A DNA stretch of 41,074 nt from positions 1 through 41,074 of the IMG/VR virus record IMGVR_UViG_3300030376_006036, one strand, 5' to 3'. Origin of the DNA: a virus (Duplodnaviria; Caudoviricetes). The notes under the pieces were generated by a model, which saw nothing but the letters and a program-made list of their open reading frames with translations, was not told the DNA's origin and searched no databases. Each line of letters begins with the position of its first letter. The stretch's first letter is position 1. Shown in pieces: positions 1 to 19,552 of this stretch. A program made the translations under genes and the position numbers.

Positions 1-1841
1 CCCATATTATCATCTGCATTAGTATCTTCAATGGTGAGTTTTGGTTTGGTTGATGTTGAAGATTTTAAATGAAGCATTGTTGAAGGACTTGATGTGCCGA
101 TGCCTAACTTATCAGCAATAAAACCTTGAGCAAACGAACCGGTTGATGTTGCTGAACCACTTATTTGATTTGAGGTATTTATAACTAACGGTTCATTTCC
201 TCCCATTGTGAATGCAAGTTTTCCTACATTTGTCGAACCACCATAGACTGCAGATATACCTGCGTCATATGAAGCAACTCTAAAACCAACGGAAGCATGT
301 GCATCATTGGTGGTGTTTATATTCTCAATACTTAAACCATTGAACGGTGCATTATCAGCGCCAGTATGGGTTGTATGTGATGTAGCATCGTTGATGTAAG
401 CACTATAAGGTGCAATAGCATTTGAAATTGTACCACCACTACTTAAATAATTAACTTGAAATTTACGAGCTTTAGCTATACCAAACGAACCAGTTGAGGT
501 TGATGAACCACTTACGTTTCCAAGAAATGTAGCATTGTTACTTGCATCAAGTGTTAGTGTACTTAAACTCTCTCCACCACCCAAGACCATTATTGCACTA
601 GCCCTATTTGTTCTCATTCTAAAAGAATTTGCAGCATAATTCCACTTTGCCAAAACTGCTCTATTTAAACTTACACTTCCCCAACCAATTCCCATGTCAT
701 TTGCATCGGGGCCAATTAAAGTCATTCCTGTATTTCCACTACTTTCTATAATTAAATCATCGTTTTCTGAATTAGCAGTAACCGTACCAGCACTACCATT
801 GAATACATGAAGCTTTCCATCAGGAACTGTGGTGCCGATACCGACCTTACCTGAACCATTTACAACTAAATCACTAAAAGTAGAATCGTGACGGCCAACA
901 ATCAATGGATAACTTGATGAATTTTTAGCCCCTACTACCAATCCATGTTGGTCTGCTTCATTTCTTTTATTAACTATTGTAACAGATGCTCCATGAGTAG
1001 ATAATCCAGCACTTGATTCAATAGCTCCACCTACTGTTATAGAAACGGCATCTGTTGCTGGAGCTGCAAATGTAGAAACACCACTAACATCTACTCCTGC
1101 ACCTACATCTAAGTTAGCAGCTACATTTACACCACCACCAGTCGCATCAATTGTAATTGGTGAACCACCATAGGCAACTGAGGCTATTTCTAATATATTA
1201 GCACCACTATTGAATATTCTCCATTTTTCAGTCGTACCCGCACCACCTGATAAAAAATTTATATAATGTGACTGTGGTACTTGTATTTTACCAAACGAAC
1301 CGGTTGATTTTGCTGAACCACTTATTAGGGAATCTCCATTAAATACAACATGAGTTTGAGATGTATTACCTATTACAGTTTGATTATCTGCTGTAGCAGC
1401 AGCATCATGTCCTATTACAATTCTGTTTGCGGCTGAAGTAGAACCTAAATCTGCACCCTGACCTATTCCGATATTGAAATTACCCGATTGTAGTGCATCA
1501 ACTGCATTTCTTCCGATTCCGACATTACCAATTCCTGTAGTGACTCCTTTCAATGCTCTATAACCAACGGCAGTATTACCTGTGGAATTTCCACCAGTAA
1601 GGTTTTGATAACCAACTCCTACATTTTGGTCACCTGTGGTTATTTGACTACCGACAGTAAATCCAACAAAGATATTACCAACAGCTCCAGTTGTGAGATT
1701 CTGTCCTGTACCTCCGAATCCAATTGAAACATTATTAGTACCTCTTGTGAAATCCAGTTTAGCCATCCCATCGGATGAAACCAATTCTAATATACCAAGC
1801 GAGCCTGTTGAAGTTATCGAACCTGAAACGAACATTGACAT
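1..1841 (-). CDS. Tail fibre/adhesin-like protein, partial (runs off the left edge, about 613 codons in window)
   Basis: Missing from the ORF track, presumably because its stop lies outside the window. The ATG at 1841-1839 overlaps the upstream TAA (TAATG) and AGGAG lies at 1856-1852. Manual translation gives MSMFVSGSITSTGSLGILELVSSDG, then YadA-head-like repeats (NIFVG, NVGVG, NTAVG, NVGIG, NIGIG) and SGSxxSTGSF repeats at 1291, 481 and 130. Confidence 0.85.
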   Translation of the reverse strand, partial: MSMFVSGSITSTGSLGILELVSSDGMAKLDFTRGTNNVSIGFGGTGQNLTTGAVGNIFVGFTVGSQITTGDQNVGVGYQNLTGGNSTGNTAVGYRALKGVTTGIGNVGIGRNAVDALQSGNFNIGIGQGADLGSTSAANRIVIGHDAAATADNQTVIGNTSQTHVVFNGDSLISGSAKSTGSFGKIQVPQSHYINFLSGGAGTTEKWRIFNSGANILEIASVAYGGSPITIDATGGGVNVAANLDVGAGVDVSGVSTFAAPATDAVSITVGGAIESSAGLSTHGASVTIVNKRNEADQHGLVVGAKNSSSYPLIVGRHDSTFSDLVVNGSGKVGIGTTVPDGKLHVFNGSAGTVTANSENDDLIIESSGNTGMTLIGPDANDMGIGWGSVSLNRAVLAKWNYAANSFRMRTNRASAIMVLGGGESLSTLTLDASNNATFLGNVSGSSTSTGSFGIAKARKFQVNYLSSGGTISNAIAPYSAYINDATSHTTHTGADNAPFNGLSIENINTTNDAHASVGFRVASYDAGISAVYGGSTNVGKLAFTMGGNEPLVINTSNQISGSATSTGSFAQGFIADKLGIGTSSPSTMLHLKSSTSTKPKLTIEDTNADDNM

Positions 1842-4800
1842 TATTTTTTATCTCCTGATTTACTATAATTATTAAGTTTCCTAAGTTCTTTGACTTCATC
1901 TGATAATTCTTTTACTGCTTCTAACAACACTGCGGTTATTCTTGTGTAAGACATCGCAGTTACATCCCCATCTTCATTTTTCGCAACGAGTTCAGGAAAT
2001 ATTTCATTTACTTCCTCTGCAATCATACCAATACTGTGTTCTTTAGTTTTTTTATAATCAAATTCTACACCACGAAGTTTTGTTATCTTTTCTAACGGAC
2101 TTTCTATTTGTCTCACATTTTCTTTGTATGCAATAGAAGATGCCTCTACCACACTACCTATGGTAGCCTGACCTGGTACGGATAATGCACCAAACGAACC
2201 AGTTGTAATAGATGAACCACTTACTTTTGTATCTGCTATAGTTAATTGTTTATGTGCAGTATTAGCATTTCTAAATTCAAGTTCATTATTATTATCGTGT
2301 CTAATCTGATTTACATTAGCCCCTTTGTAAATAGAGAACACACCACCCCTTAATGTTATACCATCCCCAAGACTCATACTCGAACCTGTTATATGACCGT
2401 TGATACTAACATTATATCCAGCTGCAATTAACTCTCCACCATTATTTATTGAAAGAGCACCAAACGAACCAGTTGAGGTTGATGAACCGCTTATATCACC
2501 ATCAACTGTTAGTTTTGCACCTGGTGTTAATAATCCATCACCTATTCCGATATTTCCATTTGTACCAACAATTAACCTATCTTGACCATTATCACTATCT
2601 CTAATTTCAAAACGACCACCATTTGACTTTAAATCATAAGTTCTTCCATTTGTAGTACCAACTAATCTAAATACACCGACTGCATCTGTTGAAGCGATTA
2701 TACCCGCGACATCTAATGGATATGATGGAGTCGCGTCTCCGATGCCAACATTTCCGTTTTCTAATATTCTTACCTTTTCTGAGTTGGCAACATCAAATCT
2801 AATATAACCGGTGCCAGCATTATTAATATCAGCAGAAAATTCTAAGCCAGCGTTTCCACCCCCTAAAATTCTATGTTTTAAGTTAGAGACATTAGTATCG
2901 TGAAGATTTATTATTGGAGACTGTGCAGTAATATTGACTTCAGATCCAGTTACATTTAAAGATCCAGTAAACTGATGAACGTCATCTTGAGTATCACCGA
3001 ATATGGTTGAACCACTGCTAAATGATGCAGTTATATGACTGACTGAAGAACTAACAACCAATCTGTTTGCAATTATATCTCCTGTAGCCCTTATATCACC
3101 TACAACATGCAGTTTATGACCAGGAGTCGCAGTTCCAATACCGACATTGCCTGAACTATTAACTCTAGCAAATTCTGTTCCATTTCCTTGTATAATTAAA
3201 GGATGATAACCACTTGCTCCATTTACAGTCAATCCAGCACCTGTCATCTGTAAGGTAGTTATAGCCGCAACACCACTTCTTTTAATTCCAATAGTATCTT
3301 CTACGGTTAATTTATTTGAAGGACTTGTGGTCCCGATGCCGACATTACCGCTATTGTTAATTCTTAACCTTTCACTCCAACTTATATCATTTCCTGCAGT
3401 TCCACTTCCAGCTGTATAAAATCTATGTTCACCATTAAGTTGTTGATACATGCTAGCTTCATCAGTTACTATATATTCCCAAGAATCATCTGTATCTATA
3501 TGGGAATTATGATTTAATGCTAAAAATCCACCAGCTGATGTTCCTGAATTTGATGTTAGAGTTGTTAAACCGCCCAGGGTTAAATTTCTAAAATTTGTGT
3601 GTGTAGCAACAGGAGTTGTTCCAATGCCGAAATTACCTGAAGCATCTATTCTAACTCTTTCAGTATTTGATGTACCAGTATGAAATGTAAGGAAACCTGA
3701 TTGTAATTTCATCTGAGCACCAGCATTTGTAGCACCATATACATGGTTTAAAGTAACAACTGTCAAACCAGAATTATTATGTGTAATATTTAATCCTGCC
3801 CCACCACCTATTTGAATATCTCCGTTTGCAGTTCCAAATTGAGCATTGTCTGCTATTTCTAATCTACCAAACGAACCAGTTGATGTTGATGAGCCACTTA
3901 TTTTTGTATTTGCGTATGGAAATTCAACATTACTCCCATCAATCTTCATCATAACATTTTCATTATTTCCAATAACATCTGTCGTATGTGCTATTGAAAA
4001 ACTTTTTTCATGATCAAAGTATTGTTTTATTGCACCATTTGATGAAAATACAGTATGGAATTGAGTTGCTTGATTACCTCCGGTATTATCTTTTAACATT
4101 AATACAGGATTAGGGCCTTCAACAATAATTTGATTATCAAAACCAGCTTGTTTAGTTGTTGTTCCTAAAAGTAAACTATTAGCACCGTGAACCATAGCAA
4201 ACGAACCCGTTGAGGTTGATGAACCACTTACATCACCCCCAAATTCAACGTTTTGACTAGCATCTATGACAATAGCATCTGTATTATTAGTTCTTATATG
4301 TAATGGAATAGCTCCTGTAGACGCTACATAGTTTTTTGCATTTTGTGCTCCACCTAAAGCAAGAAAAGTACTATTTCCAGCACCATCTTCTAAAACCAAT
4401 TCACCTTTTATTTGAACTACTCTATTTGCACCTGCTAACTGTTGTGAAGGACTTGTTGTATTGATACCGATATCGCCATCACTTTCAACTGAAAATCTTT
4501 TAGTAGTACTACCATTAGTCAAAATATACATCCTATCATCAGATTGGTCATATCCAACTACACCTCTGTCTGCATCCTCAGAACACCCAAACTGTATTTG
4601 ACCATGAGCTGTAGTACCGCTTAATAAATTAATAGAAGTAGCAGCACTATTTTCTACCACCAATTGTGCATCAGTATGACCAGAAATTGAACCAGCACTT
4701 GCCTTATGAATGTGTAAATTTGTGTCAGGTGTTGTGGTCCCGATGCCGACATTACCAGTTGTATCTATTGTCATAGCAGTTGTTATTGAACTAGCAGTTC

Positions 4801-7800
4801 CATCCTCACTTACACTAAATTGAATCTCACCACTATCGTTATTACTACCGTGTCCTGAAAAGGCAGCTATTCTTGCTACATTATCACCACTATTTCTAAA
4901 TACTATTTGAGAACTATCATTTGTTGATGTTCTTGCACCCTCTAAAACGATAACGGCAGCATCATCTGCTTTTCCATTTTCAATATGAATACCCGTATTT
5001 CCAAATGAAGAATCATCTTCAAATATATAAAGCTTTGCTGCTTGGTCTCCACCTAAAGTTGATGTCCCTATAGAGACATTGCCTGTGGATAAAACTGAAC
5101 CAAACGAACCGGTTGAGGTTACTGAACCACTTATGTTTCCACTACCTGTAATGTGAATTACATTTTTGATTGAATTACTATTTAAATCTAAATCTTGTGT
5201 CGCGGTGTGATTACCTAAGTTATCTGCACTACCACCACCACCAGCACCTACTTGTGAACCACCTACAAACAATTTACCGGCGACATCAATTCTACCAAAA
5301 GAACCAGTTGAGGTTGCTGAACCACTTATTTTTGCAATATCAGTTCCAAACTCTGCGGTATTACTTGTTAATGAAAATACAGGTGCTGAACTAGCCGCTG
5401 CTGTAAATTCCATTCTATTGATAGCGTGATCATAATCAATCATACCTATATTATCGTCTTGAGCATCTGCAAAATATATTACACCATTTGCATTGTTTGC
5501 ACTTATTATTGATATACCAGCATTTCCATTATTTTCGATAGCTAATTGAGTATCGGTATTCGGTGCTATTGAGGGATCACCATCAGAAATGTGCAGTTTG
5601 ACATCGGGATCAGTAAGTCCGATACCGACATTGCCTGAACTATTTATAGCCATGCGTAGAGTACCAGTAGTTGTTGTATTATTTGCTGATGTGTAAAATT
5701 TTATATCTTTTGCCGAATTGTATGTTCCAGTACCACCACCGATTTCTACGATAGCATGATTTCCATCACTATAACCACTAAGCATAAGAAAATCTTCTTC
5801 TGCTACTGTAGAGTGAGGAATAAGTATTCTTCCACCATTTGGATTACCATTTGTTCTACCATTAGCTTTACCACCTAATAATATATCATCTCCAAAAATA
5901 TCCAAAGCATATTCAGGTGTTCCAGTTCCAATACCCATTATACCAAACGAACCAGTTGAGGTTGCTGAACCACTTATTTTAGTGGCTGTAATGTCTAATA
6001 TATCTACACCACCTGCTGAAACTTTAATGTTATCGGCCGATGATTCTCTTAAATGTGTGTTTCCACCACCATCTAAATAAAGTTTTGAAGTAGCACTAAC
6101 ACCAGCTCCTGTTGATAGAAAATCCCACATTGTTGTACCACCAACGGAAACTCGTATATCATTAGCAGAATGTTCATATATGTAAGTATCACCACCACCA
6201 TCTAGATATATCTTTTGTGTTGCTGGTACACCCATTCCAGCTGCTACAAAGAAAGCAGATTCAGTTTCTCCAACAACCATACGAACATCATTATTGGTTT
6301 TTTCATAGAGAAATGTTCCACCATTACTGTCTAAAACTAATTTACCTGTTTGTGGTAATCTCAGTTGACCAAACGAACCGGTTGAGGTTGCTGAACCACT
6401 TACTGTTCCTGTATGAAGTGTAGCTCCAACATCTTCACTCATATAAATGTCTGTGATATTATCACCACCAATTGTAGCAGTATTTGAACCTTTACCAGTT
6501 GCTGTTCCTAATACTATTTCACCATTAGCATTTGTAGTGCCTGTTTGAGCATATTGTCCTAAATAGACACCATTTTCAGTTGTAGTGTTTGTTACTCCAT
6601 TTCCTGTTCCTGCAAAAGTTCCAATTGCAACATTACGAGCACTATCGGTAAGTGTATTGCCTGCCCTATCTCCGATAATAACATTAGCTATACTCTGTTG
6701 ACCAGCAGTTCCCGCGGCATTACCAATAAAAACATTACCATCCGCATTTGTGCTGTTTATATTAAGTCCAGTACTCAATCCGATGAAAACATTCTTATCA
6801 CCGAAATCATCACCATCTGTTCCACCGGCACTTGTTCCTATAACAACATTGTCATCACCACGAGTTCTTAATTTAGCCGCATTCTTTCCTATGTAAACAT
6901 TTCCACCAAAATCAGCCATAGCAGTTCCAGCATTAGAACCAATCGCAACATTAATTTTATTTACACTATCACCAAGAAAAGCACTACCAGCATTTGTTCC
7001 AAAAGCAAAACTTTCACCAGTAGAATTTACCTGCGGAAAGTGTTTTCCATTTTGCATTACCGAACCAAAAGAACCGGTTGATGTTGATGAACCACTTATG
7101 TTTCCACTAGCTATTACATTTCCAGATTCAACTTCTAAATTACCATTTTCTACAGATACACCAACAGTAGCTTTTATTCTAAATACATCTTGACCACCCA
7201 TTCTAAACTCAATTTCATTTGCACCTTTTCTTTTAATGCTTGAGTCTGTATCAGTACCGAATGCTAAAGCATCAGGTATCAGTAAACTACCACCGAAATT
7301 ACCTGAAGAATCTGTAATACCATTCGCATGAACAACACCAAACGAACCAGTTGAGGTTGATGAACCACTTATGTTACCAGTAATTGATAATGAACCAGTA
7401 AATCGATGTGTATCGGTAGTAGTATCACCAAAAATTGTTGAGCCACTTGAAAAACTTGAAGTAATATGACTTACCGAAGAACTGATTACATACCTTTTTG
7501 CAATAACATCACCAGTAGCCCTTATATCACCGATAACATCTAAATCAAATTGGGGATCAATTCTGTTTATTCCAACTTTATTTGCAGAAGAATCAACATA
7601 TAATACGTTAGTATCAACAGCTAAGTTACCACTTATACTCGTATTTTTAAGTAGACTAATTGCAGATGTTGTTAGACTAATTACTTTAGTTCCACCACCG
7701 GCATACAAATCTAAATCCCCACTACCAATTATAGGAACTGTGGTTGTTAAAGCACTTGTTGATAAAGTTATCTCATCAGAACCAGCACCCGCATCTAATA

Positions 7801-9573
7801 CTAAATTCGTACCAGCACCAGATTGTAGTGTTAATGCTCCGGCTGAAAATACAAATCCACCATTTGCTACCTGTACATTTCCATTGAATATTGCATTACC
7901 ACCCTCGGACATATCTAATTGTAATGCAGTTATTGTAGAGCTACCATCGACTCCTTTGAATAAGATGTCATTATTATTACTTATTGATTTTATAACTAAG
8001 TCTGAAGAAACTCTACTTATCCTACCGAACTCTGTTCCACCGTCCTGTAATCTGATTTGTGCACCATCAGCATCAAGTATCATATTACCTGAAGTCGTAA
8101 TATTACCACTTCCAACAGACAACTTTCCGAATGAACCAGTTGAGGTTGCTGAACCACTTATGTTACCAGCTATTTCTAAATTACCACTACCTGTTATATT
8201 TTGTGTAAATGATGTTCCGTTTGTAGGACTAAAAGTTGCATGAGTTGTATTTCCACTATTTGTATAGAATATTAAATCAGTATTTGAGTATCCTGTAATT
8301 CCATATCTAGCACCGATTCTAGTTTGAAATTGTACTTCGCTTTTATCCGAAACTATATTAACTGTACTGGTATGAGGATCAACCTCGAAGTAACCTTTAT
8401 AATTTTCAAGTCTTATACCTGCAGTAGTAGCGTTTCCGTATACTGCCATTGGAGCTGAATTTGATTGACCAAGCTCAACTCTACCAAACGAACCAGTTGA
8501 GGTTGCTGAACCACTTATTTTTGCATTAGCAATCTCACTAAAAATATCTCCTGTTTCATTAATTTTGAAAAAGGTTTGTCCATCTCCTTTAAATATTTCT
8601 AAAGTCGGATCATTACCCACATCTTTAAATTCTAAGAAGTTTTGTGTATCATTAAATCTTTCAATGACAAATAACTCCGTGTCTCTTGCTATTCCCTTTA
8701 TCTCTAGCTCAGCATCTGGATTAGATGTACCTATGCCTAACTTATTATCAATATAACCAGCGCCAAACGAACCGGTTGAGGTTGATGAACCACTTATGTT
8801 ACCAGCTATTTCTAAATTACCACTACCTGTTATATTTCCACTTGCCTTAATATTTCCTGTTACGGATAATTTTTCACTTGGGCTTGTATCTCCGATGCCG
8901 ACATTACTATTGATAACTGTCATAAATCTACTACCACCACCATGAAATCTCCACTCATCCGTAGCATGTTGATATTCTAATTGAGCAGCATAAGCTTGAG
9001 CACCACTTGTACCATCAGCCATCAATATAGCTGATATTCCGTTTGTGTTTGTAGCAATTGTTAAATAATTAGCAGAAGCTTGAAATGTTACCAATGGAGA
9101 ATTGAAATAAGAGCTTGGACTTGCTGTTCCGATGCCCAAATTTGTACCATCAAATACTAGATTCGCTTCCGCATTAGCATTTGTAGAATCTACAGAAGTT
9201 AAAATTCTATTATTTGAACTATTGGCTACTGTATATGATGATGGTAAATTACTAAGGTCTGATGCATCACCCAATAATTTTCCAAACGAACCTGTTGATG
9301 TTGCTGAACCACTTACATATGCACCACCCAATAGTTCCAAACCTGCTTGTCTAATTACAGCAGTTGGAGCTCCATTTGCTGAAATTCCTATTTCATTGGT
9401 AGCATATTTGTAAATTCCATTTCCACCTGAATTTATAACAAATCCTGGTTTAGTCGCAGTTCCATCAAATTTTAATCTTATAGGTGAGAAAAATTGATTT
9501 TGTTGAAAACCATTAGCAGTAGAACCAGCTATTATTGAACCAAACGAACCGGTTGAGGATGCTGAACCACTTA
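130..9573 (-). repeat. Dispersed in-frame 34-bp direct repeat family (coding consensus TAAGTGGTTCAKCAACMTCAACYGGTTCGTTTGG, peptide [IV]SGS[AS]TSTGSFG), 18 copies
   Basis: Copies start (+ coordinates) at about 130, 481, 1291, 2190, 2460, 3867, 4197, 5100, 5295, 5943, 6369, 7065, 7338, 8127, 8484, 8763, 9282 and 9540. Spacings within each gene are multiples of 3. Two copies extend into a 52-bp identity (8150-8201 = 8786-8837). Confidence 0.95.
828..8906 (-). repeat. GC-rich repeat family encoding GNVGIGT (coding GGTAATGTCGGCATCGGGACCACAA), left cluster
   Basis: Identical 25-bp copies at 3325-3349 and 4732-4756. Related copies at about 828, 2736, 3138, 5622 and 8889; the 3138 and 5622 copies share 23 bp. 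Confidence 0.85.
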
Positions 9574-9646
9574 CATTACCTGAAGAAGTTATGTGATTCA
9601 GTGCAGCATTACTTCCAGATGTTATTACTTTTTTCCAACTTGGCAT
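1841..9646 (-). CDS. Giant modular tail fibre / receptor-binding protein (2601 aa) with C-terminal Peptidase_S74 intramolecular chaperone
   Basis: Ser/Gly/Thr-rich, with 15 SGSxTSTGSF linkers, many GNVGIGT motifs and a YadA-like N-x-x-IG repeat block. The C-terminus SSIAYKENV...LRGVEFDYK...IGMIAEEV..IFPELV...LLEAVKEL is typical of S74 chaperones. AGGAG at 9659-9655. Confidence 0.85.
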   Translation of the reverse strand: MPSWKKVITSGSNAALNHITSSGNVSGSASSTGSFGSIIAGSTANGFQQNQFFSPIRLKFDGTATKPGFVINSGGNGIYKYATNEIGISANGAPTAVIRQAGLELLGGAYVSGSATSTGSFGKLLGDASDLSNLPSSYTVANSSNNRILTSVDSTNANAEANLVFDGTNLGIGTASPSSYFNSPLVTFQASANYLTIATNTNGISAILMADGTSGAQAYAAQLEYQHATDEWRFHGGGSRFMTVINSNVGIGDTSPSEKLSVTGNIKASGNITGSGNLEIAGNISGSSTSTGSFGAGYIDNKLGIGTSNPDAELEIKGIARDTELFVIERFNDTQNFLEFKDVGNDPTLEIFKGDGQTFFKINETGDIFSEIANAKISGSATSTGSFGRVELGQSNSAPMAVYGNATTAGIRLENYKGYFEVDPHTSTVNIVSDKSEVQFQTRIGARYGITGYSNTDLIFYTNSGNTTHATFSPTNGTSFTQNITGSGNLEIAGNISGSATSTGSFGKLSVGSGNITTSGNMILDADGAQIRLQDGGTEFGRISRVSSDLVIKSISNNNDILFKGVDGSSTITALQLDMSEGGNAIFNGNVQVANGGFVFSAGALTLQSGAGTNLVLDAGAGSDEITLSTSALTTTVPIIGSGDLDLYAGGGTKVISLTTSAISLLKNTSISGNLAVDTNVLYVDSSANKVGINRIDPQFDLDVIGDIRATGDVIAKRYVISSSVSHITSSFSSGSTIFGDTTTDTHRFTGSLSITGNISGSSTSTGSFGVVHANGITDSSGNFGGSLLIPDALAFGTDTDSSIKRKGANEIEFRMGGQDVFRIKATVGVSVENGNLEVESGNVIASGNISGSSTSTGSFGSVMQNGKHFPQVNSTGESFAFGTNAGSAFLGDSVNKINVAIGSNAGTAMADFGGNVYIGKNAAKLRTRGDDNVVIGTSAGGTDGDDFGDKNVFIGLSTGLNINSTNADGNVFIGNAAGTAGQQSIANVIIGDRAGNTLTDSARNVAIGTFAGTGNGVTNTTTENGVYLGQYAQTGTTNANGEIVLGTATGKGSNTATIGGDNITDIYMSEDVGATLHTGTVSGSATSTGSFGQLRLPQTGKLVLDSNGGTFLYEKTNNDVRMVVGETESAFFVAAGMGVPATQKIYLDGGGDTYIYEHSANDIRVSVGGTTMWDFLSTGAGVSATSKLYLDGGGNTHLRESSADNIKVSAGGVDILDITATKISGSATSTGSFGIMGIGTGTPEYALDIFGDDILLGGKANGRTNGNPNGGRILIPHSTVAEEDFLMLSGYSDGNHAIVEIGGGTGTYNSAKDIKFYTSANNTTTTGTLRMAINSSGNVGIGLTDPDVKLHISDGDPSIAPNTDTQLAIENNGNAGISIISANNANGVIYFADAQDDNIGMIDYDHAINRMEFTAAASSAPVFSLTSNTAEFGTDIAKISGSATSTGSFGRIDVAGKLFVGGSQVGAGGGGSADNLGNHTATQDLDLNSNSIKNVIHITGSGNISGSVTSTGSFGSVLSTGNVSIGTSTLGGDQAAKLYIFEDDSSFGNTGIHIENGKADDAAVIVLEGARTSTNDSSQIVFRNSGDNVARIAAFSGHGSNNDSGEIQFSVSEDGTASSITTAMTIDTTGNVGIGTTTPDTNLHIHKASAGSISGHTDAQLVVENSAATSINLLSGTTAHGQIQFGCSEDADRGVVGYDQSDDRMYILTNGSTTKRFSVESDGDIGINTTSPSQQLAGANRVVQIKGELVLEDGAGNSTFLALGGAQNAKNYVASTGAIPLHIRTNNTDAIVIDASQNVEFGGDVSGSSTSTGSFAMVHGANSLLLGTTTKQAGFDNQIIVEGPNPVLMLKDNTGGNQATQFHTVFSSNGAIKQYFDHEKSFSIAHTTDVIGNNENVMMKIDGSNVEFPYANTKISGSSTSTGSFGRLEIADNAQFGTANGDIQIGGGAGLNITHNNSGLTVVTLNHVYGATNAGAQMKLQSGFLTFHTGTSNTERVRIDASGNFGIGTTPVATHTNFRNLTLGGLTTLTSNSGTSAGGFLALNHNSHIDTDDSWEYIVTDEASMYQQLNGEHRFYTAGSGTAGNDISWSERLRINNSGNVGIGTTSPSNKLTVEDTIGIKRSGVAAITTLQMTGAGLTVNGASGYHPLIIQGNGTEFARVNSSGNVGIGTATPGHKLHVVGDIRATGDIIANRLVVSSSVSHITASFSSGSTIFGDTQDDVHQFTGSLNVTGSEVNITAQSPIINLHDTNVSNLKHRILGGGNAGLEFSADINNAGTGYIRFDVANSEKVRILENGNVGIGDATPSYPLDVAGIIASTDAVGVFRLVGTTNGRTYDLKSNGGRFEIRDSDNGQDRLIVGTNGNIGIGDGLLTPGAKLTVDGDISGSSTSTGSFGALSINNGGELIAAGYNVSINGHITGSSMSLGDGITLRGGVFSIYKGANVNQIRHDNNNELEFRNANTAHKQLTIADTKVSGSSITTGSFGALSVPGQATIGSVVEASSIAYKENVRQIESPLEKITKLRGVEFDYKKTKEHSIGMIAEEVNEIFPELVAKNEDGDVTAMSYTRITAVLLEAVKELSDEVKELRKLNNYSKSGDKK

Positions 9647-9660
9647 TTACTTTACTCCTA

Positions 9661-9707
9661 ATTGTGGTTGGTTACTCTCTCGAGCCCACTTCCCATTTGG
9701 GCCAACA
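9661..9707 (-). promoter_or_regulatory. Candidate structured cis-regulatory RNA in the leader of the 2601-aa fibre gene
   Basis: GC-rich intergenic island UGUUGG-CCC AAAU GGG-AA-GUGG-GCUC GAGA GAGU-AA-CCAA-CCAC ending just before UAGGAG. Possible pairings are UUGG/CCAA, CCC/GGG, GCUC/GAGU with a GNRA loop, and GUGG/CCAC (pseudoknot). Confidence 0.5.
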
Positions 9708-9914
9708 TTAAGATTTTTGAGCATATATCTGAACTATCTCATCATACTCTTTTTTTAATTTTTCTGTGACTTTGATTACCATACCAATGTCACTACCTTT
9801 ATGATTTGTATTTGCAATCATTTTGATTAAAAATTCCAAATCCTCTAATTCGAATGGATGAACATAAGCTTTTTTATCAATTATGTTTATACCACCCTTA
9901 GTTACTAAAGCCAT
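9708..9914 (-). CDS. Small hypothetical protein (68 aa)
   Basis: Co-oriented ORF filling the gap between two structural genes; GAGG upstream; predicted helical. Confidence 0.7.
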   Translation of the reverse strand: MALVTKGGINIIDKKAYVHPFELEDLEFLIKMIANTNHKGSDIGMVIKVTEKLKKEYDEIVQIYAQKS

Positions 9915-9929
9915 ATATAACCTCTATAT

Positions 9930-11150
9930 TTACGCTGTCCTAATATAAATTTCTTGATCGTCTGTATCAACCCACATTTCACCTACACCGTAATCACCAT
10001 CAGAAGTAGTTGGTGAGGCAGTTGATGTCTTTACTGTACTAACAAATTGAAGTGGAGTTACTGCAACTGCATTTGATGCTACAGTTTTAGATACTGCCCA
10101 TCTTTCTTGTTGAATGTCATGATAAAAAGCAGATCCGGTGTCAACTGCTGCACCATGCTGTACAACTAACCCAGCATCAACATTTGCTCCAGCAGAACCA
10201 GTTGCTGCAAATATAAATTGGTCACCTACTGCTAAGTTTGTTGTTGATAAAGTTGTTGTACTACCATTGACAACCAAGTCACCTTGTATTGTTGCATTAG
10301 TGGAAACAGTTAAAGCACCTGTAATGTCTACACCAGATGAATCTACTCTCATCTTTTCTGCGTTACCCGCATCAAATACGATTACATCATCCGAAGTAAA
10401 ATCAATAGTTGTATCACTACTAGCTCTTCCGATAACTAAACCTGTATTTAAAATACTTTGTACCGAAGTAATATTCGCATCTAAATCAAAGGTAACTGTA
10501 TCCGAACCGGCATTTGTTGTAATTTTTAAACCATCGGAAGATGAAGCAAAAGTTAATGTATCAGAATTTGAATCTGCTACAATATTAGTTTGTCCACCAA
10601 CAGCCACCGTACTGAATATATTACTACCAATGGTCGAGTTTGTACTTAAATCTAAACTATTACCATCACCAACAAATGAACCTGTAAATGAACCAGTTAT
10701 TTTACTAGCTGCCACAGTTGAGTCATTTACTAATATATCTACAGTTGCATTTCCGGTATTGAGTGTCGAAGTTCCATTATCAATGTTACCAAACCCACTT
10801 GCTATTGTACCAGCTCCAAGTGTACCTACTGATGTTATTTGTGTTTGTGAAGCATCAACATTGATTACCAATGTTCCATCACCTGTAACGGCTGTTAAGC
10901 CAGTACCCGCTACATCAGATGCTGCTTCAACTGCTGGACCATTAGTTCCACCGACTATAATACTTCCGTTAGTTGTTAAGGCAAGTGAACCCACTGCATC
11001 AGTTCCACTATCTTGCGATATTAGAACTGCTTTGTCCGTCAAAGACGATGCACCAAGACCACCTTGTGCTACTGGTAACGCAGTGTCTAATTGCAAAGAA
11101 GCGAGTTCTGCAGCCGAACCACTTACAATTACTTTTTTCCAATTTGCCAT
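9930..11150 (-). CDS. Virion structural / fibre-like protein (406 aa)
   Basis: The N-terminus MANWKKVIVSGS is paralogous to MPSWKKVITSGS of the 2601-aa fibre. It contains a GDLVVNGSTTTLSTTNL module also found in the right-hand fibre. GGAG upstream. Confidence 0.75.
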   Translation of the reverse strand: MANWKKVIVSGSAAELASLQLDTALPVAQGGLGASSLTDKAVLISQDSGTDAVGSLALTTNGSIIVGGTNGPAVEAASDVAGTGLTAVTGDGTLVINVDASQTQITSVGTLGAGTIASGFGNIDNGTSTLNTGNATVDILVNDSTVAASKITGSFTGSFVGDGNSLDLSTNSTIGSNIFSTVAVGGQTNIVADSNSDTLTFASSSDGLKITTNAGSDTVTFDLDANITSVQSILNTGLVIGRASSDTTIDFTSDDVIVFDAGNAEKMRVDSSGVDITGALTVSTNATIQGDLVVNGSTTTLSTTNLAVGDQFIFAATGSAGANVDAGLVVQHGAAVDTGSAFYHDIQQERWAVSKTVASNAVAVTPLQFVSTVKTSTASPTTSDGDYGVGEMWVDTDDQEIYIRTA

Positions 11151-11180
11151 TTTACTTCTCCCTAAATGATATCATCTAAT

Positions 11181-11189
11181 TATAAATAT
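11181..11189 (-). promoter_or_regulatory. Putative late-promoter motif ATATTTATA (coding strand)
   Basis: TATAAATAT on the + strand in the intergenic gap; recurs in seven gaps. Confidence 0.55.
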
Positions 11190-11201
11190 CAGTTTTTTAA
11201 A

Positions 11202-11591
11202 TTATGAATCGAATCCAAGATACCATTCATCATCTGTATCGTAATAAATTCCCCCAGCTACCGCAGTAGGTGGAGTTGATTGTCCATTCAAAACTACAAA
11301 CCCATCTCCAACTCTGAATACTAAATCATCACTACTATTATGTACTCTTAGTAAGTCTGTTGAATCGCTTGATTTAAATGTAAATTTTGAACCCGTAAAT
11401 GTATTAGTACCGCTTGATTCTTGCCAAATACTACTACCATATCTAAACAATGTATTTAAATTTAAAGCGCCAAACGAAGCAGTTCCACTAGCACTAACCG
11501 CACTACCAGTTATATTACCTGATATATCTTTTCCATCTACTATTGAAAAATCACCAGCTGGTACAAATTGTCCTGTTACTTTTACGCTCAT
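11202..11591 (-). CDS. Small virion-associated protein (129 aa)
   Basis: Ser/Gly-rich (ISGNITGSAVSASGTASFG, a degenerate copy of the fibre linker) with a C-terminal GGIYY..WYLG motif; lies within the structural cluster. Confidence 0.7.
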   Translation of the reverse strand: MSVKVTGQFVPAGDFSIVDGKDISGNITGSAVSASGTASFGALNLNTLFRYGSSIWQESSGTNTFTGSKFTFKSSDSTDLLRVHNSSDDLVFRVGDGFVVLNGQSTPPTAVAGGIYYDTDDEWYLGFDS

Positions 11592-11601
11592 TTTACTTTC
11601 C

Positions 11602-12855
11602 TTATACTGTATCTACTAATACAGTAGCATTAGTCATTGTTAATAAATTAGTCGACCTATACACACTATAGTCTTCTTGGAATCCAACAGCATTCGTTAC
11701 TGTGACATCTGACTGTTGGTTGAAACTAAAAGGAAGATTTGTACTGTTATCCTTTAGTTGATAGTCTGTATCATTATCTCCATATCTGGCTGGTATTGCA
11801 ACTATTACAAATTGGCTTGTAAATGAACCAACCGATAGTGTGTTACCTGTTACAGAACCATCATCATATGAAGTGTTTTTGTTTGTCAATGCTTCTACAC
11901 TAGCTTCGTTATTAGTCCACGATGAACCAGTACCCCAGTAAATATAATTTCTTATCTGGTTATTAGTACTAGTCACAAAGGTAGTGGAATGTGCATCTAT
12001 ATTTTGTTCCTTACTAGCATATACAAAATAGTTTTCTGTATATCCAGCAGTATTAAGATAACTTACTGTTTCTCTCAAAGGCGTTTTAGTGGTAGCATCT
12101 GTTCTATCCATAGCAACAGTCAATCTATTTGGATTATTACCACAATATACTTGTGTAACATTTGTATCACCTGTTCTATGTGCAAATGCTAAATGGTTAG
12201 AGCTACCAATAGATAATCCGGAAAGTGTTCGTGTTGTATCAGTACCCGTAATACTATTAGCTGCTGCTAGTGTTCTTATATCTGCTTGATTGAATCCGTT
12301 GTTTTTACTCAACTCTCCGTAAACAAATTGGTTTCTAAAATATATTCTTTGGTCTGTAAAATCATCACTGGTATCACTTCCAGCAGAAGCAAATAATTTG
12401 AATCTTATATCATCGTTAGGACTTGGTGGATAAGTAATTATCATCGGATTAGTACCTAAAGTAAAACTCGAACTCAATGGAAACATATCATAGGAGCTAC
12501 TTACTGAACCATCTACGAAACCTTGAATTTTTGGTGCTCCTTCAGCACTACCATTAAACCCATCAGGTGGGCCGTTGTTATATGATGCGGTAAATTGAAG
12601 TTCTCCAATTGCCTTCCACGATCCTGTTCCAATTAATTGTGGCGAAGTTGAGTCATTCATATCAAAATCAGCTATTGTAAATACAAATGTCGTTCCTTCG
12701 TCAGCAGCTACAAATTTATTTCCATTAAATTTCAGTACTTGGTCACGACTTACAGTTAGTAAATCAAGTTCTCTTTTATTTACAGAAAGTGAACCGCTTA
12801 CTGCAAATGAACCAGTTAATTTTGGATTTAATTGTCTACTGTGTATTAGTGCCAT
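11602..12855 (-). CDS. Putative virion structural protein (417 aa) with internally duplicated beta-rich domain
   Basis: N-terminal LTGSFAVSGSL. Two similar units: RNQFVYG...GYTENYFVYAS and RNYIYWG...GFQEDYSVYRS. Confidence 0.7.
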   Translation of the reverse strand: MALIHSRQLNPKLTGSFAVSGSLSVNKRELDLLTVSRDQVLKFNGNKFVAADEGTTFVFTIADFDMNDSTSPQLIGTGSWKAIGELQFTASYNNGPPDGFNGSAEGAPKIQGFVDGSVSSSYDMFPLSSSFTLGTNPMIITYPPSPNDDIRFKLFASAGSDTSDDFTDQRIYFRNQFVYGELSKNNGFNQADIRTLAAANSITGTDTTRTLSGLSIGSSNHLAFAHRTGDTNVTQVYCGNNPNRLTVAMDRTDATTKTPLRETVSYLNTAGYTENYFVYASKEQNIDAHSTTFVTSTNNQIRNYIYWGTGSSWTNNEASVEALTNKNTSYDDGSVTGNTLSVGSFTSQFVIVAIPARYGDNDTDYQLKDNSTNLPFSFNQQSDVTVTNAVGFQEDYSVYRSTNLLTMTNATVLVDTV

Positions 12856-13114
12856 ATGTTATCTCTTTTTCTTTCCTATCTACCCACCAACTTGAAATAG
12901 ATTTAGATATCTTTTTCTTATGTTGTGTAGTTTTAGGTTGTTTCATTTTGTCAATCGTATCCATAGTAAGCTTTCTATCTGATTGGGCACAAGATTTACA
13001 AACTGAATTATTACCAACTGCTCTATCAAAAGAATCTTTTCTAGAATATGTTAGTACTTTTCCACAATCTGGACAAGGTCTATTTTTTCGATTCTTCCAA
13101 TGTCTTTTCCTCAT
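12836..13114 (-). CDS. Basic zinc-ribbon protein with NUMOD3-like motif (92 aa)
   Basis: CPDC...CKSC zinc ligands followed by RKLTMDTIDKMKQPKTTQHKKKISKS, which resembles NUMOD3 DNA-binding repeats of homing endonucleases. No nuclease motif is visible. Confidence 0.6.
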   Translation of the reverse strand: MRKRHWKNRKNRPCPDCGKVLTYSRKDSFDRAVGNNSVCKSCAQSDRKLTMDTIDKMKQPKTTQHKKKISKSISSWWVDRKEKEITYGTNTQ

Positions 13115-13117
13115 AGT

Positions 13118-13126
13118 AATAAATAT
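13118..13126 (-). promoter_or_regulatory. Putative late-promoter motif ATATTTATT
   Basis: AATAAATAT on the + strand, 3 nt from the ATG at 13114. Confidence 0.45.
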
Positions 13127-13153
13127 AAAGAAATGGTAAAAGAAAAGTGGAAT

Positions 13154-14695
13154 TTACGAATTAAATTTACCTTGAGCTATTATTTCATCATCAGATTCTA
13201 AAGAATAACCTATACTGTTTGTATCAATTAATAAAAGAAAGGTTGAACCGGTTTGTTTTATTGTCAATGCATCGTGTTCCATATACTGACCATTGATAAA
13301 AAATAAAAAGTCCTGTTCATTTGTTGTGGTAATACCCGTTGGTGCTGAAGCTGTTACGGCAGTAAAGCTTGCTGTAGATGGAATTGTAATTGAAGTTGCT
13401 TTTTTTACAAAGTTTTTTCTAAGATAATTATTAGTATCTGTGGTTGATACCCCACCTATGGCTAATGAACCCGTTACATCTAATGAACCGGTAAACCTAT
13501 GTTTATCATCTAAAGTATCTCCAAATATATTAGAACCACTGGCAAAAGAAGTTGTCATGTGAGTTACGGAAGAGGAAACGATATAATTTTCTGCTATTAT
13601 ATCTCCTTGTACAACCCAATCTGTATTTACTTGTGCTTTTCCATCCTCTCTCTGTGAAATTTCAAATGATGTCGGACCTATATGAAGAGTATTTGAAGCA
13701 CTTACGTTATTAAACTGAACTGTACTTGTGGTTCCAACATCTTGTCCTATTGCAAAAGAAAAATTACCTTCGGATGTTCCATCAAATGTACTACCACCAC
13801 CTATTGTTACTCCAGTTCCAGCGGTAAAATTAATTGGATTTTCTAAACCACCACCACCGGCTGCTCCAGCTTGCTGCACACTTATGTTAACATCTTGTCC
13901 GGTTTTCGTTATTGCTCCTAAATCAATAGATACATCATCACCGATAAGAATTCTCTTCGGAGTCATTTTTTTCTGAGTGGTAACTACTTTACTAAATTCT
14001 TCAGGTAATAAATAACCATTCATAGTTACAGAGAAAGTTGTTTTAATAATTCTTTCCTGATTTACATTAACTTCACTAGCATCTGTATAATTATCTATCT
14101 GTGTTCTAAATTTAAATTTACCATCTTCACCCCAATAAGCTCCTTCTGAATAAATTAATTTTTCAACAATAGAATTCATTTGCTCTGTATACGAAGTCCA
14201 TATTACAAAATCATAACTTAACTTTACATAATCAGGTACCGGTACTGCGTATAATTCTCTAGTAGGATTTAGTCCTTGTTGAACCGAAAATTTATCATAT
14301 CTGTTCTTATCAGAATATTGTTTTTGAAAAGTATATTGTAACTGTGGATCTTGTGGATTTAATTTATCAACAGCTAAATCATTATCTTTTTCTATAGATG
14401 TTCTTTTAAATGCAATCAAAGGTATTATCAATTGCTTCTTATTATCGTAAAGAAATCCTCTTTTCTGTACCATAGACCATCTTTCAGGATTAGCATACAT
14501 AATAGGTACTTTAATCATTTCTCCATTTTCAACTACCTGAGGTTTTATTACATTATTGAAATAAAACATGATGGTTGCATCTATATCCATTAACCCTATG
14601 GAAAAGTTTTTTACTTCATCATCTTTTCTTGATTTTTTGAAACCACGATTGAAATCTTTCCTTTTCGAACGAGGTATTGGTTTTTCACGAGCCAT
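13154..14695 (-). CDS. T4 gp15-like tail completion/terminator protein fused to a fibre-like C-terminal extension
   Basis: IKVPIMYANPERW, IIPLIAFKR and PVPDYVKLSYDFVIWTSYTEQMNSIVEKL resemble gp15 motifs, and the gene follows gp13 and gp14. The ATG at 14695 overlaps the upstream TGA and AGGAG lies at 14706-14702, so the track's TTG start at 14698 is less likely. Confidence 0.7.
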   Translation of the reverse strand: MAREKPIPRSKRKDFNRGFKKSRKDDEVKNFSIGLMDIDATIMFYFNNVIKPQVVENGEMIKVPIMYANPERWSMVQKRGFLYDNKKQLIIPLIAFKRTSIEKDNDLAVDKLNPQDPQLQYTFQKQYSDKNRYDKFSVQQGLNPTRELYAVPVPDYVKLSYDFVIWTSYTEQMNSIVEKLIYSEGAYWGEDGKFKFRTQIDNYTDASEVNVNQERIIKTTFSVTMNGYLLPEEFSKVVTTQKKMTPKRILIGDDVSIDLGAITKTGQDVNISVQQAGAAGGGGLENPINFTAGTGVTIGGGSTFDGTSEGNFSFAIGQDVGTTSTVQFNNVSASNTLHIGPTSFEISQREDGKAQVNTDWVVQGDIIAENYIVSSSVTHMTTSFASGSNIFGDTLDDKHRFTGSLDVTGSLAIGGVSTTDTNNYLRKNFVKKATSITIPSTASFTAVTASAPTGITTTNEQDFLFFINGQYMEHDALTIKQTGSTFLLLIDTNSIGYSLESDDEIIAQGKFNS

Positions 14696-15183
14696 CAAAT
14701 ACTCCTAACTCTTTCTATTTGTATAGAGCTTTTTCTAACTAAAAATGTTGTTGCAATTACTGAATAGTTTTGATCGAACATTCCACCTATCAATTGGTTT
14801 TCATTTATAGAACCTACTTCAAAATATCCATAGTTCCATTCGATTAAATCACCTATTTCTAATACCACACTGCTATCTATAAAGGATTGTCTTAAAAATG
14901 CAAATGACGCGTTTTGTCTATTGTCAACACTAAAATCATCCTGATTGTAATCAAAATCTTCAGCGTTTACTAAACAATTCATTTGAACACCATCTTTATA
15001 AATTTTATTTCCAGCATCACTTTCACCATACATATTTGTAGCTGATAAAGAAAGTGAAGGTTTATAAATCACTACTTCTTGATTTATAATACCATCTTTA
15101 TTATTTTTTTTATCACCCACAAGTTCTTTTGTAATCCTAGTTATTAAGTCTACATCTTTTTGTGGTAAGAATCTTCCAGCCAT
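14695..15183 (-). CDS. Neck / head-completion protein, T4 gp14-like (162 aa)
   Basis: Lies between the gp13-like and gp15-like genes; motifs INQEVVIYK, TNMYGES and EIGDLIEWNYGYFEV fit gp14-type head-closure proteins. Confidence 0.65.
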   Translation of the reverse strand: MAGRFLPQKDVDLITRITKELVGDKKNNKDGIINQEVVIYKPSLSLSATNMYGESDAGNKIYKDGVQMNCLVNAEDFDYNQDDFSVDNRQNASFAFLRQSFIDSSVVLEIGDLIEWNYGYFEVGSINENQLIGGMFDQNYSVIATTFLVRKSSIQIERVRSI

Positions 15184-15187
15184 CTTT

Positions 15188-16348
15188 CTATCCTATGTAT
15201 ATTGGATAAGGAACTTTTTGTAATTTTTCTTGTAAAAATTCTGCCTCATCCTTATCAGCTTCTAATAATGATTTTCTACTTGTTTGTTCTAAGATTTCTC
15301 TAAGCTGAGTCATTAAAAATTCTTTTTCAGTTGAAGCCTCAGTTCTAAGTGTATCCCCATCCAAAGTAGTTTCTGCATTTGGAATTGGTAATGAATTATA
15401 CTTACTTCTTATCTGCCCTAGTAATTCTTTACACAAAGCAAGTGCATATTTTTTAATCCATTGTTTTCCTACATCATTGATAAATTTAAACTGCATGTTA
15501 TCATATGGTGCGTTCGATATATCAGATACAACACCTGTTACCTTTCCTTGTGCAGTATTATTCCTATCATCTTTCAATAGATAATTAAAATGTAATTTAT
15601 AATTTTCTGTCGGTGGGGGAAATATCCTTAGCTTATTATTTACTAACTCAAAAGAGTATGCAGATTTTCTTATTTGGTCGTTAAATTCTATTGCCTGTAC
15701 TTTGAGTATATCCGCATACATCGGCATCATCATAAATTGTACAGCAGGTGAAAATTTTCCAAAACCAAAAGAATCTAACATATTATAAGAACCATCGCCT
15801 GTTCCAGCATATGGATCGAAATATCTTGTAATAGCAGGAGAACCTTCGTAAAATACTTTTCTGATTTCAATACCCGAACCAGATTGTGCTACACTTTCAC
15901 TTACTTGTGCCCAAGCATTTAAATCATACACCTGTGAACCACTTACTACATTTATAGAACCACTCTTAAAATCAATAGTACCACCGACTCCAGCCTCAGT
16001 ACCATACTGTTCAGATAACTGTATTGCCCTACCGAAAGTTGGTGTTACTTTTGTATGAGTTATATTAGAACCTGTAGACTGTCCTTGTAAAGATAAAATA
16101 TTATCTTTAATATTGAATTGATTTACTTGTGCACTATATTCTGTAATGGATTCTTCGTAGCAAGCATAAAATTGTGATTCTTGCAATTCTATAGCAACTA
16201 TTGGATATCCTAGTCTTTTTGCAGCCCAATTAGAGAATTTATCAACCGAATGATTACCTGAACCAGAAAACTCTGTATCTGTATCGTAAAATCCGTATGG
16301 TGTTTCTCCTGGTGAAAAAGAACTACTTCCTGGCCAAATTACTTCCAT
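15188..16348 (-). CDS. Neck / head-tail adaptor protein, T4 gp13-like (386 aa)
   Basis: KRLGYPIVAIELQESQFYACYEESITEY and WIKKYALALCKELLGQIRSKY..PIP...LDGDTLRTEA match the gp13 N- and C-terminal motifs. AGGAG at 16360-16356. Confidence 0.85.
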   Translation of the reverse strand: MEVIWPGSSSFSPGETPYGFYDTDTEFSGSGNHSVDKFSNWAAKRLGYPIVAIELQESQFYACYEESITEYSAQVNQFNIKDNILSLQGQSTGSNITHTKVTPTFGRAIQLSEQYGTEAGVGGTIDFKSGSINVVSGSQVYDLNAWAQVSESVAQSGSGIEIRKVFYEGSPAITRYFDPYAGTGDGSYNMLDSFGFGKFSPAVQFMMMPMYADILKVQAIEFNDQIRKSAYSFELVNNKLRIFPPPTENYKLHFNYLLKDDRNNTAQGKVTGVVSDISNAPYDNMQFKFINDVGKQWIKKYALALCKELLGQIRSKYNSLPIPNAETTLDGDTLRTEASTEKEFLMTQLREILEQTSRKSLLEADKDEAEFLQEKLQKVPYPIYIG

Positions 16349-16380
16349 TATTTTTCTCCTAAAGTATATAGATATTCAAT

Positions 16381-16389
16381 AATAAATAT
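16381..16389 (-). promoter_or_regulatory. Putative late-promoter motif ATATTTATT
   Basis: Lies directly downstream of the capsid-gene terminator and upstream of gp13, where a new promoter would be needed. Confidence 0.55.
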
Positions 16390-16395
16390 AAGATA

Positions 16396-16430
16396 AACAA
16401 AAAAAGGGGAAGTAAACACTTCCCCTTTTT
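16396..16430 (-). terminator. Rho-independent terminator after the major capsid gene
   Basis: Perfect 13-bp inverted repeat AAAAAGGGGAAGT-(4 nt)-ACTTCCCCTTTTT (16401-16430) followed by a T-tract on the minus strand; potentially bidirectional. Confidence 0.9.
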
Positions 16431-16456
16431 AAGTAATAAGATTAATTGATATTCAA

Positions 16457-19324: not shown

Positions 19325-19552
19325 TTAAAATTTTCTATTCTTATTAGTGTAATCTTCTTCTAAAAGTTTGATTTTTTTCCAATGATTTCGTGCTTTTGCC
19401 TTATTTTTCATCTCTTTTTTAACGCTGGATGGCTTTTTGTAGTATTCTCTTTCCCTCAACTCATACAGAACACCGGCTTCTTTCACTTTTCTTTTGAATA
19501 TACTAATTGCTTTTTCGTAATTGTTATTCCTAACATTCACTTTTATTGACAT
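19325..19552 (-). CDS. rpsU: Phage-encoded 30S ribosomal protein bS21 (75 aa)
   Basis: IKVNVRNNNYEKAISIFKRKVKEAGVLYELREREYYKKPSSVKK matches the bS21 signature (V.V....E.A...FKR.....G...E.R.RE.Y.KPS). Basic, of typical length, with GAGGT upstream. Confidence 0.92.
   Translation of the reverse strand: MSIKVNVRNNNYEKAISIFKRKVKEAGVLYELREREYYKKPSSVKKEMKNKAKARNHWKKIKLLEEDYTNKNRKF

Follow-up and report, generated by a model that had tools for sequence, protein, structure and literature searches.

Fibre genes of T-even phages recombine at conserved motifs, both in the distal tail fibre gene gp37 and in gp38, the adhesin gene with its glycine-rich motifs (PMC3157838, citing Tetart 1996, 1998), and recent mosaicism in tail fibres has been documented generally (PMC10684548). 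In the T4-like phages RB49 and phi1, PeSL shuffling proceeds by crossovers between short repeats that give mini-circles, as shown by inverse PCR (PMC2839356; PMC4122927). Here, we describe a related arrangement in a 41,074-nucleotide (nt) stretch, hereafter the window, of a virus of the Caudoviricetes (IMG/VR record IMGVR_UViG_3300030376_006036). Two fibre-like genes of this phage are divided into cassettes by copies of one short coding unit, which we call the linker. We show that the linker is a shared break point of module exchange in giant fibre genes.

As in the T-even systems, the target is a fibre gene of a T4-like phage in which short conserved motifs alternate with variable segments, exchange occurs in or near the motifs and no dedicated recombinase is invoked. 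In contrast, there is one linker of near-uniform DNA spelling, which differs from the His boxes and glycine-rich motifs of gp37 and gp38 and bounds whole modules that change order and gene, whereas the gp38 motifs keep strict synteny (PMC3157838). With PeSL shuffling the linker shares short dispersed direct repeats in hyperplastic T4-like regions, the gain, loss or replacement of the flanked cassette, variable crossover zones and a presumed reliance on general recombination. However, PeSLs are intergenic promoter, stem-loop and terminator elements that move whole genes, whereas the linker is coding and shuffles parts of one polypeptide (PMC2839356). The Bdellovibrio MAT fibres and S74-chaperoned phage fibres resemble the proteins described here in their S74 module, in GIG...P repeats of the capping-loop type and in weak sequence matches; MAT diversity, in contrast, lies mainly at the tip, no DNA-conserved linker is described in the available part of that account, and the phage proteins are known from sequence alone (PMC10769870). 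Lastly, the g15-g18 region of cyanomyoviruses is hyperplastic and hypervariable and holds whole, often metabolic genes; two relatives of our phage likewise have their arrays in the interval from g15 to the sheath gene, but in this non-cyanomyovirus lineage the interval contains giant fibre genes arranged in chains (PMC2984593).

The linker system works like T-even motif recombination and PeSL shuffling while being a strict member of neither, and in the partial genomes searched it lacks the defining features of an integron, a shufflon or a diversity-generating retroelement (DGR). It is ordinary in principle and unusual in scale, and is best read as a large-scale in-frame version of T-even motif recombination and of PeSL shuffling. 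Integrons are defined by the tyrosine recombinase IntI, attC hairpins, cassettes that are separate open reading frames (ORFs) and a fixed crossover bond, and shufflons and fibre invertases (Gin, Cin, Min and Rci) by inverted sites, inverted silent cassettes and an adjacent invertase. The arrays share with these systems a cassette look and, with the invertase systems, the fibre target. They differ from integrons and shufflons in forming one continuous ORF whose modules are all translated together, in having no inverted sites, in their scattered crossovers and in that no recombinase was found in the partial genomes searched.

A coding linker divides two fibre-like genes

The linker is 34-36 nt long, with the peptide [IV]SGSxxxTGSF[GA], and is best framed as 12 codons (36 nt). 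The window holds 18 copies, all direct and in the minus-strand reading frame. Fifteen are in a fibre-like gene at positions 1841-9646 (-), which codes for 2601 amino acids (aa): a 24-aa N-terminal peptide, 14 cassettes of 53-457 aa set between the linkers, and a C-terminal S74 chaperone module. In the direction of translation, these copies occupy positions 9539-9574 (linker 1), 9281-9316, 8762-8797, 8483-8518, 8126-8161 (linker 5), 7337-7372, 7064-7099, 6368-6403, 5942-5977, 5294-5329 (linker 10), 5099-5134, 4196-4231, 3866-3901, 2459-2494 and 2189-2224 (linker 15, immediately ahead of the S74 module). The remaining three, linkers 16 to 18 at 1290-1325, 480-515 and 129-164 (-), belong to a second fibre-like gene (3-1841, minus strand; 613 aa as far as the edge of the window, where it is open). 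When both strands of the window were scanned with a profile, just one further copy, a degenerate one in the second gene at 1794-1829, was retrieved, and none on the opposite strand.

Start-to-start spacings range from 195 to 1407 nt, and every spacing within a gene is divisible by 3; the 899-nt spacing spans the gene border. The number of copies, their in-frame layout and their spacing thus reproduce the original prediction, which was made from the letters of the DNA. The 18 copies have a mean pairwise identity of 89% over 36 nt, and the pair of longer repeats reported there, 8150-8201 and 8786-8837, is identical over exactly 52 nt.

The same prediction held that the serine of GSF prefers TCG. 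This is borne out: codon 10 is TCG in 15 of 18 copies, compared with 2.9% among the other serine codons of the two genes. Similarly, ACC is used for 11 of the 15 threonines at codon 6 (background 9.7%), and codons 4 and 9 are TCA and GGT, respectively, in all 18. The copies are not independent, so that binomial P values for these biases are indicative only. Dicodon context was ruled out as the cause of TCG, as GSF elsewhere in the window uses this codon in 0 of 6 cases. RNA structure was ruled out as the cause of the codons, with a folding energy of -3.8 kcal/mol for the linker and -4.3 kcal/mol for synonymous controls (RNA parameters).

Homology breaks at the linker

We compared the arrays with fetched related loci (numbered with the prefix L), all of them metagenome assemblies; none of the genomes searched is more than 79% complete. 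Among pairs of linker contexts with one flank at least 85% alike, the other side switches to an unrelated neighbour in 88 of 119 at real linkers but in only 19 of 199 at control points, which were four sets of pseudo-joints placed inside cassettes. Where a flank family was observed repeatedly, it has multiple partners in 40 of 56 cases upstream and 33 of 50 downstream, and 422 linker contexts comprise 400 distinct junction types. After masking of the linkers, 28 of the 55 homology ends that were informative fall at a linker, although linkers make up 15% of array length, and identity beyond the end averages 33%; nine array-edge and four read-through ends were set aside from this count. The near-duplicate segments L040, L060 and L016 (and L021 in the masked analysis and the motif codon counts) were excluded from the early cassette, homology-end and motif-codon comparisons. 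The later pair analyses merged identical contexts only, so some of the pairs scored as continuing are near-duplicate strains.

Cassette content is highly diverse. Modules across the arrays measure 14-1219 aa, and 244 cassette interiors from 53 genes fall into 37 full-length families (89 interiors) and 155 singletons. Eight of the 17 modules of the window have a match of at least 80% over at least 100 nt in the fetched loci. Cassette 6 (7100-7336, minus strand, as are all those that follow) is 97.5% identical at the nt level from end to end to a cassette that has other neighbours in L034 and L043, and it has full-length relatives at 55-56% aa identity in three more loci. Cassette 7 (6404-7063) matches a cassette of L053 and L054 over 657 of its 660 nt at 92.9% identity, and nt 19-243 of cassette 3 (8519-8761) are 89% identical to a cassette of L057 and L061. 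In cassette 5 (7373-8125), nt 1-737 of 753 are 92% identical to L012 and L172, and the match stops at a secondary HxFTGS motif. The C-terminal module (1844-2188) is 90% identical to L012 and L176 from the linker onward. Cassette 13 (2495-3865) is a mosaic of sub-modules between GNVGIG motifs that resemble capping loops, and it weakly matches the Bdellovibrio MAT fibre Bd2133 (PDB 8ond, E 1.2e-7).

L004 and L043 differ by one extra cassette of 130 codons between flanks that are 99.8% and 97.5% identical, and an 84% relative of this cassette is located in another gene of L004. In L019 and L049, which are 96% alike, the content between two linkers differs. Cassettes have also been duplicated within a gene, in one case in tandem (95% identity) and in another at a distance (86%; the 4088 ORF of L038 and the 8432 ORF of L057).

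The proposal of module exchange at the linker is thus supported as regards gain, loss, moves between genes and swaps between phages. Except for a lack of junction reads, none of the patterns named in advance as contrary to it was found: modules are not collinear, breaks do fall at the linker, and codon identity reflects neither background usage nor one recent duplication. The integron- or shufflon-like character that had also been proposed is not supported.

As a separate observation, contigs from several sequencing runs diverge from the window at many positions in 6404-7063 and 1401-1618, at about double depth, which suggests related modules in co-occurring phages.

Crossovers along the linker and probable codon homogenisation

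Mismatches between linkers (codons 2-11) increase as flanks change: pairs with both flanks in common average 0.31 (n=13), the two sets in which one flank differs 2.5 and 3.3 (n=15 for each), and random pairs 4.95. This gradient suggests repeated crossovers along the linker. Among 10 pairs sharing at least 97% of the upstream flank, the first linker mismatch lies at nt 9-37; among 10 pairs sharing at least 97% of the downstream flank, the last lies at nt 3-36. No single cut position fits these values, because it would have to precede every first mismatch and follow every last one. Moreover, linker alleles are unlinked from the retained flank, and crossovers are thus placed inside the linker.

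The linker keeps codons beyond what its peptide needs, as the original prediction had argued, though not without exception. Given the same residue, two copies use the same codon with a probability of 0.69 in 150 sampled linkers, compared with 0.33-0.60 in seven other conserved motifs with at least eight copies; an eighth motif with three copies reaches 0.71 on 21 comparisons, and two UvsX genes give 0.41. The share of TCG climbs with the number of copies per ORF, from 14 of 51 (27%) for single copies to 50 of 111 (45%) for two or three, 70 of 136 (51%) for four to seven and 109 of 136 (80%) for eight or more, in classes that include some ORFs cut by locus ends. Of 186 copies whose departure from the search pattern lies elsewhere in the linker, 118 have TCG. 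In loci not selected for TCG, it is present in 7 of 25 and 19 of 73 copies, well above the 3-5% background, and loci found without the DNA pattern have GGT at codon 9 in 24 of 25. We infer from its dependence on array size that TCG reflects homogenisation among copies and not an obligatory binding site.

A proposed mechanism and its alternatives

It is likely that the linker is a shared exchange point that acts as a hot spot of homologous recombination for the phage's own T4-type machinery, and not the site of a dedicated recombinase. In T4, UvsX and gp32 support strand invasion or annealing. First, the linker peptide would be a structurally tolerant joint of a putative trimeric beta-helical fibre, such that an in-frame exchange would yield a foldable protein. 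Second, the linker would be the longest near-identical stretch between divergent genes, where UvsX/gp32 strand invasion or annealing could resolve during replication or co-infection, so that modules would be deleted, duplicated, transferred to another gene or exchanged with another phage. Third, this traffic would homogenise the copies by concerted evolution; those nearest the population consensus would recombine most, and rare codons would become fixed in large arrays. Fourth, adhesion modules would come to form a common stock of the whole population, to be sorted by selection at the host surface. Recombination patches of <50 bp are on record for T4 (PMC2839356). A RecA/UvsX gene lies beside a predicted gp32-like gene in two of five partial relatives, an observation of presence only. 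Both the UvsX-type mechanism and homogenisation as the cause of codon fixation are put forward as the probable course of events.

A number of points weigh against this interpretation. For UvsX, a linker of 36 nt with 87-89% identity is a short substrate. The fixed linker codons are rare GC-ending ones, for which the homogenisation model does not account, and most loci were found by DNA pattern, which inflates codon identity. Pair counts do not represent independent events. Against a length-conditioned null, the excess of ends at linkers is modest (25 and 26 of 45, with 17.9 expected), and internal homology ends are common (27 of 55, and 57 of 144 in a larger set). GNVGIG motifs account for more of these internal ends than expected (11 of 57, against 4.4), as do FTGS motifs (five, against 1.5); degenerate linkers are scored among them, as the motif pattern misses these, with little enrichment (16, 12.8 expected). 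The GNVGIG motif, similar to the MAT capping loop (PMC10769870), also favours rare codons, namely GTC in 34, GGC in 34 and ATC in 40 of 48. Among assembled contigs of six runs, which drop rare variants, the joints listed extend at most 45 nt on their short side, and no product of a junction within the array of the window was seen in the contigs examined. Finally, two independent assemblies of one phage share the same array (99.97% identity over 19 kb, 21 linkers), so that turnover is not fast within a lineage.

We regard as unlikely that the linker carries a signal, such as a Chi-like or nicking site (perhaps its GGTTC core, which occurs twice), at which some unrecognised protein of phage or host initiates recombination, exchange then spreading over the linker. 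Such a signal would agree with the fixation of codons 2-4, 7 and 9, which also holds for loci collected independently of the DNA pattern, with rare GC-ending codons in the linker and GNVGIG alike, and with a pair break rate (74%) that is high for 36 nt. However, TCG is optional, no candidate gene was found in the partial genomes, conserved motifs of other sequence also gather homology ends, and the trend with array size fits homogenisation. A far-reaching version, in which a universal in-frame 'protein integron' of a marine T4-like phage clade, with a 36-nt joint targeted by an unrecognised initiator, would circulate hundreds of adhesion modules among all fibre genes of the population, possibly in the form of excised circles, is likewise unlikely.

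Quite unlikely is a purely structural explanation, with exchanges occurring anywhere, only those at the joint giving foldable proteins, and codon identity left over from recent duplications. The nearly invariant peptide at module borders, the likeness of the secondary motif to the MAT capping loop and the frequency of internal ends all speak for it. It is difficult to reconcile with linker alleles that are unlinked from the kept flank, which point to crossovers inside the linker, with codon identity above that of equally conserved peptides, and with one DNA spelling common to 36 contigs whose cassettes are mostly unrelated.

Very unlikely, in our judgement, is an integron- or shufflon-like system, with the linker cut at one fixed bond by a recombinase of the tyrosine or serine type; the scattered crossover bounds already largely refute it. 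A short conserved site that flanks cassettes and the exact one-cassette difference between L004 and L043 would suit such an enzyme, and the genomes searched are incomplete. In contrast, no cut position fits, inverted copies are absent, TCG is not required, and the linker folds no better than its synonymous controls. In line with the original prediction, the window has no match to PF00589 (tyrosine integrase) or PF00239 (resolvase). The searches of partial genomes likewise gave none for PF00589 in 11 (including the window), PF00239 in six, PF07508 (large serine recombinase) in five and PF00078 (the reverse transcriptase of DGRs) in five. Representatives of prokaryote species carry the linker pattern in very few contigs, all of them of metagenomic origin (see below).

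Contigs from independent runs match cassettes of the window perfectly (100% identity) and with even coverage, and single contigs bridge five linkers (those starting at 1290, 2189, 9281, 9539 and 5099). As these public-run contigs break at the other linkers, the full cassette order is not proven. That assemblers joined unrelated modules through repeated k-mers is extremely unlikely: contigs do break inside linkers, half of them fitting two places, and all comparison sequences are metagenome assemblies, yet partners differ in both linker (2.5-3.3 mismatches) and cassette (1-15%), unlike chimaeras made through identical k-mers, the L004 linker matches neither L043 copy, and the recurring cassettes, the bridged linkers and the two concordant assemblies all argue against it.

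Distribution of the linker

The exact 32-nt linker pattern was found at 67 loci on 36 other IMG/VR phage contigs. By peptide pattern, these loci hold 307 copies, 220 of them with TCG; a second DNA pattern that excludes TCG gave 62 stretches. The largest array has 37 linker copies across six neighbouring ORFs of one phage, with up to 16 per gene. In all five relatives searched whole, linker matches are confined to a single strand, and the linker is located only in the fibre-gene region. The genes that carry arrays differ between phages. In L057, for example, a 2496-aa array is headed by the N-terminus found in the 129-aa gene of the window (33 of 43 residues identical). The short structural genes at 11202-11591 and 11602-12855 (-) have N-termini that start long linker arrays elsewhere (L057 and L062; L009 and L048), and a degenerate linker is seen in the 129-aa gene near 11453-11484.

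Among loci gathered by a neighbour gene, 10 of 80 have the linker motif, mostly in low copy, and the arrays are therefore patchy within the wider phage group. In cultured phages, no linker was found: the eight matches at E 0.1 are at chance level. Among the prokaryote species representatives of GTDB, the pattern occurs in four contigs only (among L211-L217), all from metagenome-assembled genomes with unrelated labels, and these are probably mis-binned phage DNA. We found no account of this linker in the published literature, as searched in main texts without supplements and largely outside subscription journals.

The source phage and neighbouring genes

The window is a 41-kb fragment of a T4-like myovirus, estimated at 28% of the genome. 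It codes for the structural and packaging families gp17, gp20, gp21, gp23 and gp15. The gp23 major capsid protein (16457-18121, minus strand) best matches those of an uncultured phage (53%), Microcystis phage Mel-JY01 (51%) and Flavobacterium phage immuto (47%), and the gp15-like tail sheath stabiliser gene (13154-14698, minus strand) is a landmark upstream of the fibre region. Sequencing runs that contain the fibre gene are mostly labelled marine metagenomes. A bS21 gene (19325-19552, minus strand) is also present and shares its strand with the structural genes; in freshwater bS21 phages, this gene lies on the reverse strand (PMC9723584).

The 2601-aa protein matches PF13884 (Peptidase_S74; E 1.7e-12) at residues 2503-2554 (about positions 1985-2140) and tail-fibre PHROGs. 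Weak PDB sequence matches include Bdellovibrio MAT fibres and the distal subunit of a long tail fibre (PDB 8ond, 8oml and 6f45), the likeness to the latter being confined to the S74 end. A protein search with the fibre stretch gave six matches, all weak. The S74, PHROG and PDB likenesses suggest that the fibre modules may bind receptors. A single-chain AlphaFold model of residues 284-1093, a monomer with a predicted local distance difference test score (pLDDT) of 37, is too poor for use. Upstream of the gene, a scan for promoters and terminators remained at chance level.

A third giant protein of at least 2286 aa (34214-41074, minus strand) has an S74 end, a Hint/AXH-like domain at residues 1881-1990 and zero linker copies. 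The 1240-aa protein at 28871-32593 (-) combines an AAA_33/zeta-toxin-like kinase domain with a cytidylyltransferase-like domain. [ST]GS tripeptides, two of which are in the linker, are over-represented in predicted surface virion proteins (1841-18121, minus strand), with 40 observed and 8.5 expected in the fibre, five and 0.4 in the neck adaptor, four and 0.6 in gp15, and three and 0.6 in the capsid protein; the portal, terminase and putative scaffold genes have none. As a guess, the tripeptide might be a glycosylation sequon.

Biological significance

These findings indicate that an abundant group of uncultured phages can build very long and diverse surface fibres without a recombinase, with one coding linker serving as the standard joint of a whole community. 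The principle of motif swapping, which in T-even phages concerns a few segments, is thereby extended to modules that move by the dozen. Such genes are prone to fragmentation or mis-joining in short-read assemblies, and linker polymorphisms are markers for the position and rate of crossovers in wild phage populations. In the arrays, nature offers a library of fibre modules already adapted by evolution to in-frame joining.

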